Below, one piece after another: positions 2,139 to 12,086 of a DNA stretch of 12,086 bases (position 1 is its first letter; every line of letters starts with the position of its first letter). The position numbers were made by a program, and so were the translations under genes. Under the pieces are notes generated by a model that saw only the letters and a list, made by a program, of their open reading frames with translations, did not search any database and had not been told where the DNA came from. The DNA lies in IMG/VR virus record IMGVR_UViG_2703718792_000009; one strand, given 5' to 3'. This DNA is from a virus (lineage: Duplodnaviria; Heunggongvirae; Uroviricota; Caudoviricetes).

Positions 2139-3041
2139 ATGCCAAATTTACCGATGGGCGGATCGCAGGGTGAATTACCCTTAGTACCTACAGTAGAAGT
2201 TGTTGCTGATGGCATTCCTATGGGGGTGCTTAATGATGGAACCCCTTATCTAACTCTTTACGGTTTAGCCAAATTATGTGGCATAGATGAAGCACCTCTT
2301 CGAATGTTTACATCTAACTGGGAGACTGAAAAAAATAAGCCAAGAGGACAAAAAGTAGCTGCATACTTAGCTGAGAAAGGATTTAACAACGTTGACCGAC
2401 TGTATACCCGCGTCATAAATAGCTCAAACGTTGAAACACATGCTTATCCTGACTATGTTTGTATGGCTGTTCTTAGGTACTATGCCCTCGATGCCACAAA
2501 TTTTGATAGATCCGTTGCAATAGGAAACTTTGTTCGCTTAGCTGAATACACGCTCAAGCGAATGATCTATGAAAAAGCAAACTATAACCCCAACGCTGCC
2601 ATAGACGTTTCATTCGAAAACTATAGAGCTCGTATAAAGCTAAACAACCAAATACCAACAACTCATTTTGCTGTATTCAGAGAAATAGCAGATATTGCAA
2701 TGACGTTAATAGGAAATGGCTTTCCTATGGATGATACCACGTCACTAGACGGAAGCGTTGGAAATCACTGGGGAAAGTATTGGACAAAAAACAACCTTTC
2801 CGAGAGATTTGGTGATAGAGTTCAATATCAACACATTTTCCCTGAAAACTACAGGCAATCTGCAGCCAACAAGTACATAAAAGCCTGGATTTACCCTATC
2901 GAATCATTGGGGCTATTCAGGAAATGGCTTCACGATAACTATGCCATGGAAAAACTACCCAAATATCTTGGAAACAAAAAAATCAGTAACATAACTGAAC
3001 TATTGGAAGCCGTCAAAAAACCAGCATTACCAAACCAGTGA
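2139..3041 (+). CDS. Hypothetical 300-aa protein in the rexAB-equivalent slot (between cI and PL/nutL); candidate prophage-encoded anti-phage (abortive infection / exclusion) protein
   Basis: Long clean ORF; AAGGA 12 nt upstream of ATG; followed by a strong intrinsic terminator. Not RexA-like. No P-loop or obvious nuclease motif seen. Looks AT-richer than cI by eye (not computed). Confidence 0.8.
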   Translation: MPNLPMGGSQGELPLVPTVEVVADGIPMGVLNDGTPYLTLYGLAKLCGIDEAPLRMFTSNWETEKNKPRGQKVAAYLAEKGFNNVDRLYTRVINSSNVETHAYPDYVCMAVLRYYALDATNFDRSVAIGNFVRLAEYTLKRMIYEKANYNPNAAIDVSFENYRARIKLNNQIPTTHFAVFREIADIAMTLIGNGFPMDDTTSLDGSVGNHWGKYWTKNNLSERFGDRVQYQHIFPENYRQSAANKYIKAWIYPIESLGLFRKWLHDNYAMEKLPKYLGNKKISNITELLEAVKKPALPNQ

Positions 3042-3062: not shown

Positions 3063-3090
3063 AACCCGGCCTCAGCGCCGGGTTTTCTTT
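3063..3090 (+). terminator. Rho-independent terminator after the 2139-3041 gene (t_imm-like)
   Basis: aaCCCGGC-ctcagc-GCCGGGtt stem (8 bp) followed by TTTTCTTT. Confidence 0.6.
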
Positions 3091-3231: not shown

Positions 3232-3300
3232 TACAAAGTGTTATAAAAAATCACCCTATTTTAGAACAAATCGTATTGACCCAATAAAGTACATATCGTA
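3232..3300. promoter_or_regulatory. OL-like tripartite operator: TACAAAGTGTT (3232-3242), AACAAATCGTA (3265-3275), TACATATCGTA (3290-3300)
   Basis: Same TACA-N3-TGTA family as at OR; centre spacings 33 and 25 bp, close to the 32 and 26 bp at OR; overlaps the PL -35/-10. Confidence 0.45.
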
Positions 3301-3304
3301 CTAT
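3276..3304 (+). promoter_or_regulatory. PL-like promoter: -35 TTGACC (3276-3281), 17-bp spacer, -10 TACTAT (3299-3304)
   Basis: Consensus-like -35 with canonical spacing, ~190 bp upstream of N and ~45 bp upstream of nutL boxA. Confidence 0.5.
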
Positions 3305-3350: not shown

Positions 3351-3396
3351 GCTCTTTAAACAACGTCGAACTCTCGACTACGTGGCTGAAAAGCCA
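3351..3396 (+). promoter_or_regulatory. nutL-like site: boxA GCTCTTTAAACAA (3351-3363) and boxB hairpin TGGCT-GAAA-AGCCA (3383-3396)
   Basis: boxA resembles the CGCTCTTTAACAA-type consensus; boxB has the same GAAA loop as the nutR candidate with a compensatory stem change (GG/CC here, CG/CG there). Confidence 0.55.
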
Positions 3397-3494: not shown

Positions 3495-3767
3495 ATGTCC
3501 AGAAAAACAGAATTTAAAGGCACCGCAGCTTCTCGCCGTAGAGCTCGTCGCGCAAATCTGCAAAGTCAGGAGGCGATCAGCTCCGACAAGCTACACAGGC
3601 CAACCCCTTCACGAGTGGTCTTGCAATGCAAGCGCAAACCAGCAATGAGAGCAGAAGTGATAACTCTGACAACGTTGACCAGAAAATATGAAGGTTCAAC
3701 TTGTCTTCCGAACGTAGCTCTTTACGCGGCAGGCCACCGGAAATCCAAACAACTGACAGCAAGATGA
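3495..3767 (+). CDS. N: N-type transcription antiterminator, P22 gene-24-like (90 aa)
   Basis: Arginine-rich motif near the N-terminus (ASRRRARRANL) and C-terminus NVALYAAGHRKSKQLTAR, close to the P22 gp24 C-terminus as recalled; GGGAGGA RBS before ATG 3495; downstream of PL and nutL. Confidence 0.8.
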   Translation: MSRKTEFKGTAASRRRARRANLQSQEAISSDKLHRPTPSRVVLQCKRKPAMRAEVITLTTLTRKYEGSTCLPNVALYAAGHRKSKQLTAR

Positions 3768-3828
3768 CTTGTGTTGGTCACCAGAAAATGAAATCAGGCA
3801 GCAAACCACTTATTTGAGAGGAATTAAT

Positions 3829-4452
3829 ATGTCATCAATCCGCTTAACTACGAGAATGAAAGAGGATATCGCTCGTAACGCTTTAATTAAGTCCGGGGTT
3901 TTCACCGAACTTGAAGAAGTAACAAAGTTAAAGAACCGGCTTGCACTTGACGCCAGAGTTGTTGCGTTTGGCGGTAAAAAGAAAACTGAAGAAGTGGATC
4001 AGTTATCATCCAGATTAATGGCTATAAGTGAAGAACTTGAAAAGATGGGATGTTCATTTTACTCATACGATGTTCGTTCTACTTCAATTTATCTGACTGT
4101 ATCTGGCAGAAGGGTTGGCTGGTATTCATATGGAAAAGACGGTAACGGCGAAGATATATTGCTCCCTACTCCTAACAGAGATAAATGCATGTTTAACGCA
4201 GAACACGAAATAACAAAAAGGTTTGATGAAATCTGCGCATTGCAACAAAAACTTGAAGCCAGGAAAAAGGATATCGAATCAAATGTATGGGCTGCTTTGA
4301 ACTCAGTAACAACAGTTAAGCGACTTATTGAAGTTTGGCCTGAAAGCAAAGAATTGCTACCAAAAGAAGCAGATAAAGCAAGTACAGCACTTCCTGCTTT
4401 ACGGGTAGAAGATTTGAATAAGATGATTGGACTTCCTTCCGAGGCCGCATAG
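3829..4452 (+). CDS. Hypothetical 207-aa soluble protein in the N to cIII interval (ral/sieB-equivalent accessory slot)
   Basis: GAGAGGA RBS 6 nt before ATG 3829 (the track ORF begins at a TTG at 3769); no hydrophobic segments; no motif I recognise; stop codon sits in the loop of a terminator hairpin. Confidence 0.7.
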   Translation: MSSIRLTTRMKEDIARNALIKSGVFTELEEVTKLKNRLALDARVVAFGGKKKTEEVDQLSSRLMAISEELEKMGCSFYSYDVRSTSIYLTVSGRRVGWYSYGKDGNGEDILLPTPNRDKCMFNAEHEITKRFDEICALQQKLEARKKDIESNVWAALNSVTTVKRLIEVWPESKELLPKEADKASTALPALRVEDLNKMIGLPSEAA

Positions 4453-4467
4453 TCGGCCTTTATTTTT
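4442..4467 (+). terminator. Rho-independent terminator (tL1-like) overlapping the stop of the 207-aa gene
   Basis: AGGCCG-catagt-CGGCCT stem followed by TTATTTTT. Confidence 0.5.
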
Positions 4468-4557
4468 GGCATAAACAACAGAATAAACACAGCACTGTGT
4501 ATTCATTCCAACGAGTGAATACACGGAGCAATTTAAAGCGTAAATAAGGAGCACACC

Positions 4558-4698
4558 ATGCAATATGCCATTGCAGGGTGGCCTGTTGCTGGCTGCCCTT
4601 CCGAATCTTTACTTGAGCGAATCACACGTAAATTACGTGACGGATGGAAACGACTCATCGACGTACTTAATCAGCCAGGAGTTCCCCAAAATGGATAA
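4558..4698 (+). CDS. cIII: cIII (46 aa), lambda cIII-like
   Basis: MQYAIAGWPVAGCPSESLLERITRKLRDGWKRLIDVLNQPGVPQNG, near-identical to the recalled lambda cIII N-terminal 46 aa; AAGGAG RBS upstream. Confidence 0.85.
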   Translation: MQYAIAGWPVAGCPSESLLERITRKLRDGWKRLIDVLNQPGVPQNG

Positions 4699-5705: not shown

Positions 5706-6173
5706 ATGTCTCACTTGGACGGAATTATTAAAAGATTCGAGTCCAGCTACAAAGTTAATGAAACAACAGGTTGCTGGGAGTCTACCTATTCAAAAAACAA
5801 AGGAGGATACACAAAATTTGTAGCCTTTGGCGTAACAATGCTTTCTCATCGGGTTGCTTTTGAGCTTTATCACTCCCCCATTCCATCTGGGAAGATGGTT
5901 TGCCACAAATGCGATAACCCATGCTGCGTTAATCCTGAACATCTCTTTTTAGGTAGCGCGCAAGAAAACATGGACGACAAGATAGCAAAAGGAAGGCATC
6001 GTGGAGCCAAGAAAGGTCATGCTCATCATGGTGCAAAATTAACAGAGTGGCAGGTTATAGAAATTAGGAAAAGACTCTCTGAAAAAGAGAGTCAGTACAA
6101 GATAGCAAAAGACATGGGTGTATCTCAATCAATTATAAGCAACATAAAAACTGGCAAGAGGTGGAGCAAATGA
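5706..6173 (+). CDS. HNH endonuclease (155 aa), free-standing
   Basis: Core [27 protein letters not shown] (HNH with Cys-rich metal site); start is immediately after the annealing-protein stop and the stop overlaps the ssb start (ATGA). Confidence 0.8.
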
Positions 6174-10108: not shown

Positions 10109-10309
10109 ATGCAACACGAACTACAACCTGATTCACTGGTTGATTTGAAATTCATCATGGCCGATACTGGCTTCGGTAAGACCTTCATCTATGACCGGAT
10201 TAAGTCCGGCGACCTGCCTAAAGCCAAAGTTATCCACGGGCGAGCAAGATGGTTATATCGTGATCATTGTGAATTCAAAAATAAGCTCTTAAGCCGCGCC
10301 AATGGGTAA
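10109..10309 (+). CDS. torI: AlpA/TorI-family excisionase (recombination directionality factor), 66 aa
   Basis: MQHELQPDSLVDLKFIMADTGFGKTFIYDRIKSGDLPKAKVIHGRARWLYRDHCEFKNKLLSRANG, a winged-helix Xis/AlpA-type fold signature; matches my recollection of E. coli KplE1 TorI; last prophage gene before the att core; CGGAGA RBS. Confidence 0.75.
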   Translation: MQHELQPDSLVDLKFIMADTGFGKTFIYDRIKSGDLPKAKVIHGRARWLYRDHCEFKNKLLSRANG

Positions 10310-10838: not shown

Positions 10839-12086
10839 CTATATTGCTGAAGGTACAGGCGTTTCCATAACTATTTGCTCGCGTTTTTTACTCAGGAAGA
10901 AAATGCCAAATAGCAACATCAGGCAGACAATACCCGAAATTGCGAAGAAAACTGTCTGGTAGCCTGCGTGGTCAAAGAGTATCCCAGTCGGCGTTGAAAG
11001 CAGCACAATCCCAAGCGAACTGGCAATTTGAAAACCAATCAGAAAGATCGTCGACGACAGGCGCTTATCAAAGTTTGCCACGCTGTATTTGAAGACGGAT
11101 ATGACACAAAGTGGAACCTCAATGGCATGTAACAGCTTCACTAATGAAATAATCCAGGGGTTAACGAACAGCGCGCAGGAAAGGATACGCAACGCCATAA
11201 TCACAACACCGATAAGTAATGCATTTTTTGGCCCTACCCGATTCACAAAGAAAGGAATAATCGCCATGCACAGCGCTTCGAGTACCACCTGGAATGAGTT
11301 GAGATAACCATACAGGCGCGTTCCTACATCGTGTGATTCGAATAAACCTGCATAAAAGACAGGAAAGAGTTGTTGATCAAAAATGTTATAGAAAGACCAC
11401 GTCCCCACAATAAATATGACAAAAACCCAGAAGTTTCGATCCTTGAAAACTGCGATAAAATCCTCTTTTTTTACCCCTCCCGCATCCGCCGCTATGCACT
11501 GGTGATCCTTATCTTTAAAACGCATGTTGATCATCATAAATACAGCGCCAAATAGCGAGACCAACCAGAAGTTGATATGGGGACTGATACTAAAAAATAT
11601 ACCGGCAAAGAACGCGCCAATAGCATAGCCAAAAGATCCCCAGGCGCGCGCTGTTCCATATTCGAAATGAAAATTTCGCGCCATTTTTTCGGTGAAGCTG
11701 TCAAGCAAACCGCATCCCGCCAGATACCCCAGGCCAAAAAAGAGCGCCCCCAGAATTAGACCTACAGAAAAATTGCTTTGCAGTAACGGTTCATAAACGT
11801 AAATCATAAACGGTCCGGTCAAGACCAGAATGAAACTCATACACCAGATGAGCGGTTTCTTCAGACCGAGTTTATCCTGAACGATGCCGTAGAACATCAT
11901 AAATAGAATGCTGGTAAACTGGTTGACCGAATAAAGTGTACCTAATTCCGTCCCTGTTAATCCTAGATGTCCTTTCAGCCAAATAGCGTATAACGACCAC
12001 CACAGCGACCAGGAAATAAAAAAGAGAAATGAGTAACTGGATGCAAAACGATAGTACGCATTTCTGAATGGAATATTCAGTGCCAT
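10839..12086 (-). CDS. cscB: LacY-family oligosaccharide:H+ symporter, most likely sucrose permease CscB (415 aa, complete; start codon is the last 3 nt of the window)
   Basis: Aligns by eye along its length with LacY (DKLGLKKPLIWCMSFILVLTGPF...NFHFEYGTARAWGSFGYAIG... vs LacY [23 protein letters not shown]...NFEFGRARMFGCVGWALC...); N-terminus MALNIPFRNAYYRFASSYSFLFF matches my recollection of CscB. Confidence 0.8.
   Translation of the reverse strand: MALNIPFRNAYYRFASSYSFLFFISWSLWWSLYAIWLKGHLGLTGTELGTLYSVNQFTSILFMMFYGIVQDKLGLKKPLIWCMSFILVLTGPFMIYVYEPLLQSNFSVGLILGALFFGLGYLAGCGLLDSFTEKMARNFHFEYGTARAWGSFGYAIGAFFAGIFFSISPHINFWLVSLFGAVFMMINMRFKDKDHQCIAADAGGVKKEDFIAVFKDRNFWVFVIFIVGTWSFYNIFDQQLFPVFYAGLFESHDVGTRLYGYLNSFQVVLEALCMAIIPFFVNRVGPKNALLIGVVIMALRILSCALFVNPWIISLVKLLHAIEVPLCVISVFKYSVANFDKRLSSTIFLIGFQIASSLGIVLLSTPTGILFDHAGYQTVFFAISGIVCLMLLFGIFFLSKKREQIVMETPVPSAI

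Follow-up and report, generated by a model that had tools for sequence, protein, structure and literature searches.

A full-length Nmad5-family gene between N and cIII in the early left operon of a lambdoid prophage

The window analysed here is a stretch of 12,086 nucleotides of caudoviricete DNA (IMG/VR record IMGVR_UViG_2703718792_000009), in which an Nmad5-family gene is located on the plus strand at 3829-4452. The gene starts with an ATG at 3829, ends with a TAG at 4450-4452 and encodes a protein of 207 amino acid residues with a mass of 23.3 kDa and a pI of 7.6. The ribosome site GAGG is found at 3818-3821 on the same strand, 7 nt upstream of the ATG. A reading of 227 residues starting with the TTG at 3769 is unlikely, since every homologue begins at MSSIRLT. 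The G+C content of the gene was 39.9% versus 44.7% for the window, and its GC3 was 0.33, with values of 0.41-0.49 for the neighbouring genes. Among 57 distinct alleles the median pairwise dN/dS was about 0.3, showing that the gene is under purifying selection. Together with the existence of homologues, this shows that the reading frame is a genuine gene and not a chance open reading frame. An antisense open reading frame of 133 residues over the 3' half of the gene (4089-4490, minus strand) probably occurs by chance, and a promoter-like site inside the gene (4131-4160) was treated likewise.

Directly at the end of the gene an intrinsic terminator resembling tL1 was detected at 4441-4467 (plus strand) with a terminator scan and RNA folding. 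In its hairpin (4441-4460), a stem of 7 base pairs, of which 5 are G-C, closes a loop of 6 nt with the sequence CATAGT, and TATTTTTGG follows. The TAG stop codon at 4450-4452 is located within this loop. We then compared the window with 80 close lambdoid relatives from IMG/VR, all of which carry the Nmad5 gene, and the terminator was present 3' of the gene in every one of them. The arrangement was also observed in more distant homologues. In the Dryocola homologue (60% identity) the hairpin with the stop codon in its loop and the T-run are kept with a different stem sequence, and in the Izhakiella homologue (54% identity) a hairpin and a T-run follow directly after the stop. The protein has no membrane segments, as the highest 19-residue Kyte-Doolittle mean was 0.61. 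The initial annotation had described a soluble 207-residue protein without transmembrane segments, not SieB-like, whose stop codon lies in a terminator loop; the ribosome site, the homologues, the hydropathy profile and the terminator scan with RNA folding all agree with this description.

Upstream of the gene, a sigma-70 promoter-like site (TTGACC-17-TACTAT, 3276-3304, plus strand) was found in a consensus scan with 9 of 12 matches. It is located downstream of the terminator of the repressor-bstA unit (3063-3084), and the fact that it is flanked by the S24 repressor operon and N suggests that it is PL. A nutL-like element at 3351-3378 (plus strand) was read by eye. It consists of the boxA-like GCTCTTTAAACAA at 3351-3363 and the hairpin GTCGA-ACTC-TCGAC at 3365-3378, which was also found by a scan; its role as nutL is putative, judged from the sequence. 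The strict search for the lambda boxA (CGCTCTTA) returned nothing meaningful. The N antiterminator gene with 90 codons follows at 3495-3767 (plus strand; PF25694 N_peptide, E 2.2e-32), and the cIII gene is located at 4558-4698 (plus strand; PF02061, E 3.1e-30). Pfam therefore identifies both flanking genes and places the Nmad5 gene between N and cIII in the PL operon, where the initial annotation had put it and where Ral- and SieB-type genes are located.

From the PL-like promoter to the hairpin at 4441-4467, the scan detected no terminator-like site on the plus strand. In the 62-nt gap between N and the Nmad5 reading frame, no promoter-like site was detected with a consensus scan, which weak promoters could escape. 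Because the region between promoter and hairpin is free of terminators, the Nmad5 gene is probably transcribed together with N as an immediate-early gene, before N-mediated antitermination. The expression of cIII, kil and the recombination genes would then need read-through of the terminator at 4441-4467. A possible Rho-dependent termination between PL and the Nmad5 gene would speak against immediate-early expression.

Besides N and cIII, the window encodes the S24 repressor, Rad52, HNH, SSB, a 3'-5' exonuclease, Ea22 and DUF551, where the SSB gene was assigned from the list of open reading frames and the synteny with mEp235. The Rad52-HNH-SSB-exonuclease group begins 0.55 kb downstream of the Nmad5 gene. 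Directly 3' of the S24 repressor, in a rexAB-like slot closed by the terminator at 3063-3084, is a gene of 300 codons for the abortive-infection defence protein BstA (2139-3041, plus strand; PADLOC PDLC02356, E 4e-106). This bstA gene has no Pfam match and a G+C content of 40%, and it is common to only about 2 of the 80 related loci.

The 207-residue protein was then assigned by profile searches. It matched PF18757, which is Nmad5, the 'nucleotide modification associated domain 5', with 242.1 bits against a cut-off of 27 (E 7.6e-72), and residues 4-203 were aligned with profile positions 1-206 of 206. PHROG 1965, annotated as 'unknown function', was matched with E 2.1e-81, and homologues in RefSeq and UniRef are named 'Nmad5 family putative nucleotide modification protein'. 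The Pfam scan at E<=1 returned only Nmad5 and noise below the thresholds, with neither the Ral nor the SieB family, and NCBIfam gave no match to the protein. A Pfam match to YfjL_C (E 0.016, below its cut-off) and the label 'Smchd1' on the homologue APC_JM3.2 were judged to be spurious. In the databases 64 homologues were found at E<=1e-3. A profile search in 1.84 billion cluster representatives extended the family to 2,283 clusters at 50% identity (E<=1e-3), and among the best 150 of these clusters nearly all members are stand-alone proteins with a median length of about 205 residues. The Nmad families were reportedly first described by Iyer and colleagues in 2013. Thus, the gene that had been called unrecognised and without a motif is a database object already known in this slot, with a family name and in sequenced phages. 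We regard it as practically certain that the protein is a full-length, intact Nmad5 member encoded by a promoter-less cassette directly downstream of N in the PL operon.

Close relatives of the gene are widespread in lambdoid phages. DNA with 95-96.5% identity was found in 77 phage records, which include mEp235, HK542, HK244, SH2026Stx1, Kapi1 and many Stx1a- and Stx2a-converting phages. At the protein level the window copy is 93-96% identical to those of mEp235, HK542, HK244 and Stx1a-converting phages, which share the slot, and one IMG/VR contig (L014) encodes an identical protein. In mEp235 the order is N, Nun, the Nmad5 gene, cIII and kil, followed by Rad52, SSB, exonuclease and Abc2. As in the window, the genes of mEp235 (mEp235_037), HK244 (gp01) and HK542 follow N, or N and Nun, and are followed by the terminator; nothing of substance differs, and only the downstream neighbours vary between the phages. 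The immunity-region records of HK542 and HK244 list another hypothetical protein beneath the match to the window. A literature search on mEp235 yielded no functional study of the Nmad5 gene.

When the 80 related loci were aligned to the window, the homology ended at clustered breakpoints. On the left side the ends were found at 3765 (45 loci) and at 3797-3809 (19 loci), and on the right side at 4482-4500 (19 loci) and at 4532 (55 loci). The N region was common to only about 8-24 of the 80 loci, and the sequence past the terminator was shared by 57 loci, falling to 22. The clustering shows that the ribosome site, the reading frame and the terminator travel together as one mobile cassette (3765-4532, plus strand). 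An N-family gene is located one or two genes upstream of the Nmad5 gene in 66 of the 80 loci and within five genes in 77, and N is the only constant partner gene. On the 3' side, cIII comes next in about 48 loci; in the others its place is taken by any of several unrelated genes. The recombinase in these loci is either Rad52 or belongs to a second, unannotated family.

The Nmad5 gene is also lost by insertion. In 48 records of Stx2a-converting phages an IS3-family element, whose transposase reading frames have 108 and 296 residues, interrupts it near codon 35. In one of the records, that of phage Stx2_716 (locus L101, 1238-2451), the split corresponds to about position 3930 of the window and a truncated reading frame of 152 residues remains. 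The mobility of the cassette, the low G+C content, the purifying selection and the split by the element mark the gene as accessory, and it appears to be dispensable for phage growth. Like a moron, the cassette has its own terminator, an atypical composition, a patchy distribution and variable flanks; a promoter of its own for expression from the repressed prophage was not found with the consensus scan of the 62-nt gap. The initial annotation had taken the N-cIII interval for a variable accessory slot, and this part of its interpretation stands. The comparison of the interval across the 80 loci gave cassette breakpoints between differing flanks, the DNA of the gene was present in 211 of 5,426 complete E. 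coli genomes, and the gene is found split by the insertion element; it neither encodes a known core phage protein nor is it conserved in all relatives.

The structure of the protein was predicted with AlphaFold2. An alignment of 58 sequences gave a model with a pLDDT of 91.8 and a pTM of 0.82, and with 22 sequences the pLDDT was 84.9. In the model, three long helices (residues 8-72) are followed by a beta hairpin and a few short strands (86-122), a helix of 32 residues (127-158) and short helices (163-176 and 194-200), resulting in a helical bundle with a small beta insert. The search for relatives of the model yielded no solved structure, and the fold resembles no known enzyme. The protein thus has a named family and a confidently predicted fold without a solved relative, and the description as unrecognised was not upheld.

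The conservation was highest in the C-terminal region, at residues 161-203 (4309-4437, plus strand). Here, the signature motif T-x-K-[KR]-L-x3-W-P-E-x2-E-L-L-P ... L-P-A ... L-N-x2-I-G-L-P was observed. In the 58 sequences, which are 24-80% identical, L166, W170, P178 and N197 are invariant, and T162, P171, E172, L176, L196 and G201 are at least 90% conserved. K164 and the K or R at 165 also lie within this stretch. At the amino terminus the conservation was weaker (R5, I14 and A18, in a motif R-L-T...I...A..K). The window protein carries every position that is at least 90% conserved in the alignment. The helical fold, which is not enzyme-like in the model, and the invariant C-terminal surface suggest a binding protein rather than a catalyst.

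For the wider family we inspected 77 diverse IMG/VR loci whose proteins are 33-46% identical to a central family member. The gene is found most often in replication modules. A DUF2800/PD-(D/E)XK nuclease is encoded in 36 loci (in 31 of them at position -2 from Nmad5), an Enc34-type ssDNA-binding protein in 33 (in 30 at position -1) and a family A DNA polymerase in 39 (in 28 at +1 or +2), with a SNF2 helicase further along in 17. A search of the literature on the DUF2800/DUF2815/PolA module brought up no functional work on the intervening gene. A conserved protein of about 300 residues without a Pfam match is encoded at position -3, before the DUF2800 nuclease, in 31 of the 77 loci with PolA-type modules; an example among the loci L105-L148 is L146, 4151-5053.

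Similar neighbourhoods were observed outside this sample. In an N4-like Ithacavirus the order is PolA-DUF6378-ThyX-Nmad5-PD-(D/E)XK-primase, in YuA Nmad5 and PolA are located in one gene block, and in a Vibrio phage the gene adjoins a replication initiator. In a Serratia prophage and in a second, unrelated prophage, Nmad5 directly follows the S24 repressor, and in the latter it heads an operon that runs into exonuclease, SSB and PolA. An exception is Dhillonvirus, in which the gene is a lone insert on the opposite strand within the head module. The hosts of the family include Vibrio, Pseudomonas, Bordetella, enterobacteria and alphaproteobacteria. An unvarying motif in about 2,283 clusters and in phages of such distant hosts implies a conserved interaction partner.

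Taken together, we propose that Nmad5 is a non-enzymatic adaptor with a helical bundle that would act by binding. The contact would be made by the family-invariant basic and WPE...LN..IGLP C-terminal region, the target may be DNA or a conserved part of the machinery for replication or recombination, and early phage DNA metabolism would thereby be tuned or protected. We consider this the best explanation as a whole and hold it tentatively, at close to an even chance; the mechanism with all its steps, which rests on the gene neighbourhood and the predicted fold, is slightly less probable. Several observations speak against it. The Dhillonvirus gene is located in the head module and not in a replication module, and the lambdoid loci have no constant partner gene besides N. 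In addition, the conserved polar residues, E172 and those of an ADH-like motif near residue 125, could be catalytic.

The Dhillonvirus proteins, which offer indirect hints in favour of the adaptor, are the only members of the family with genetic data (PMC11846954). They share the domain (SM_A8 and SM_S22, CDS6/7; BF9 gp17; E 1.3e-54) and differ from the window protein by an identity of only about 26%, by an insert of about 45 residues in the beta region and by belonging to lytic phages. Escape from the Tmn system maps to the exchanges K216E in SM_A8 and K296E in SM_S22, and the reversion of the mutation restored the sensitivity to Tmn (PMC11846954). When the gene was deleted the phage was viable and still sensitive, the gene was toxic and could not be cloned, and wild-type Nmad5 gave no protection against Tmn (PMC11846954). 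The Dhillonvirus gene is therefore dispensable, and the window gene appears to be so as well. In our alignment K216 corresponds to R165 of the window protein, the second basic residue of the T-x-K-[KR]-L motif. The SM_S22 coding sequence (L100, 2006-3010, minus strand) has an N-terminal extension of 80 residues that overlaps the scaffold gene and is, judged from the sequence, probably a start-codon miscall. The family start MRLTK aligns with an internal methionine of this coding sequence, which shows that K296 is the K216 site.

The interval between N and cIII is known for accessory genes such as ral and sieB of lambda and gene 17 of P22, and early left operons also carry genes for anti-defence and host takeover. 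The position of the gene alone therefore does not discriminate between the adaptor and an anti-defence or host-takeover protein, which would be made as the infection begins and would bind and block a host nuclease or an NTPase-type defence protein and thereby do a job like that of Ral. Such a protein would be in keeping with a gene directly after N and ahead of the first terminator, with the accessory hallmarks (patchy distribution, mobile cassette, low G+C content and loss by the insertion element) and with a non-enzymatic fold. DNA hypermodification is generally regarded as an anti-restriction device, and the copies of the M6/YuA type are located inside a DNA-hypermodification cluster. In Dhillonvirus a missense mutation and not the deletion leads to escape from Tmn, as fits a retargetable binder, and the gene is toxic when cloned. 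However, known anti-defence proteins are usually narrow in distribution and evolve fast, whereas this family is very broad and has an invariant motif; its members are most often encoded between the genes for an ssDNA-binding protein and a DNA polymerase, and Tmn is not countered by the wild-type Dhillonvirus protein. The likeness to Ral, SieB and the P22 gene 17 product concerns the genomic slot and the accessory status. Neither homology to Ral or SieB (Pfam, E<=1) nor membrane segments of the SieB type (hydropathy maximum 0.61) were found, so that the likeness is positional only. When the PADLOC database was searched, no family matched the protein at E<=1. In the DefensePredictor paper an 'NMAD' domain is named for both predicted and validated defence systems; as the paper does not specify the Nmad family, we gave this no weight. 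We consider such an anti-defence or host-takeover protein rather unlikely, although it is the main rival of the adaptor. The host-takeover or exclusion role that the initial annotation had implied thus lacks direct support, since PADLOC is blank and the family context is that of replication and recombination modules; of its interpretation, the accessory slot holds and the unrecognised status does not.

A more specific form of the adaptor proposal involves Tmn itself. In T2, RIIB is the direct trigger of Tmn and is called an early replisome-associated protein (PMC13001434, a 2026 preprint). We tested T4 RIIB as a homologue of Nmad5 and rejected it, as hhalign gave a probability of 0.6%. Because the two proteins are non-homologous, the parallel is only functional and circumstantial. 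Both proteins are early, dispensable and genetically linked to Tmn, and the replisome association stated for RIIB of the T-even phages in the source paper is paralleled by the synteny of Nmad5 with replication genes. In contrast, RIIB null mutants escape Tmn, whereas the Nmad5 deletion does not. Nmad5 could accordingly be the counterpart of RIIB in siphophages and lambdoid phages, a non-enzymatic adaptor of the replisome or of replicating DNA that is expressed immediate-early with N, has no role in modification and has a C-terminal motif surface that the membrane NTPase Tmn reads or is blocked by. We judge this to be distinctly unlikely in such a specific form.

We also considered whether Nmad5 is a component of a modification pathway, as its name suggests. 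The name reportedly rests on the gene neighbourhood in a few thymidine-hypermodifying phages. In YuA, the neighbours of Nmad5 include a 5-hmdU DNA kinase with its helical partner, a radical-SAM protein and a thymidylate synthase resembling dUMP hydroxymethylase, and the SN1 paper describes the same neighbourhood for M6 and SN1. The YuA (gp15; PF18757, E 4e-56), M6 and SN1 (SN1_019) proteins share the domain and the C-terminal motif with the window protein. They are about 32% identical to it and are embedded among modification genes that are missing here. The position inside this thymidine hypermodification cassette, and the order in the N4-like phage, where Nmad5 follows ThyX, would agree with a DNA-binding subunit that confers specificity or serves as a scaffold, or with an enzyme that has escaped recognition, acting together with enzymes of the host or with a phage partner. 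However, no modification enzyme was found among the window genes, and no hydroxymethylase, kinase or aGPT-Pplase in the complete 37.6-kb genome of mEp235, which carries the Nmad5 gene. The lambdoid protein must therefore act without these partners. The neighbourhood of 5-hmdU DNA kinase, aGPT-Pplase and pyrimidine hydroxymethylase is absent here; it is contextual and does not define the membership in the family. Moreover, most members are encoded in modules without hypermodification genes, and the fold is unlike any known enzyme. The papers found to mention Nmad5 contained no experiment on a biochemical role in nucleotide modification. Given the missing partners and a fold unlike that of an enzyme, a role in modification is very unlikely, and the name probably misdescribes the protein, as the lambdoid copies without partner enzymes show.

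The weakest of the alternatives is a prophage defence or superinfection exclusion protein expressed from the lysogen in the manner of sieB, which occupies the same slot in lambda and P22: although this prophage carries the BstA defence gene beside the repressor, a gene downstream of PL and N without its own promoter should be repressed in the lysogen, the 62-nt gap has no promoter-like site, the protein has neither a membrane segment nor a PADLOC match, and members of the family are frequent among strictly lytic phages, for example the N4-like phages and Dhillonvirus, so that we regard it as extremely improbable.

The lambdoid gene offers the easiest place to find the function of Nmad5 and to probe the link to Tmn. 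The family is very large, with about 2,283 clusters and a confidently predicted fold, and carries a name that suggests a function from the neighbourhood alone. Both mEp235 and HK542 can be grown on E. coli K-12, and as the gene appears to be dispensable, it is the lambdoid copy that can be studied most readily.

Two further observations concern the downstream part of the window. The prophage end is contained in the window without int: an AlpA/excisionase-like reading frame (10109-10309, plus strand) is followed by a host gene for an oligosaccharide MFS transporter (10839-12086, minus strand), and no integrase gene lies between them. The second observation is the HNH_3 endonuclease gene at 5706-6173 (plus strand; E 1e-13), which is located between the Rad52-family gene and ssb. 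As these two genes are adjacent in mEp235, the HNH_3 gene looks like the insertion of a homing endonuclease.
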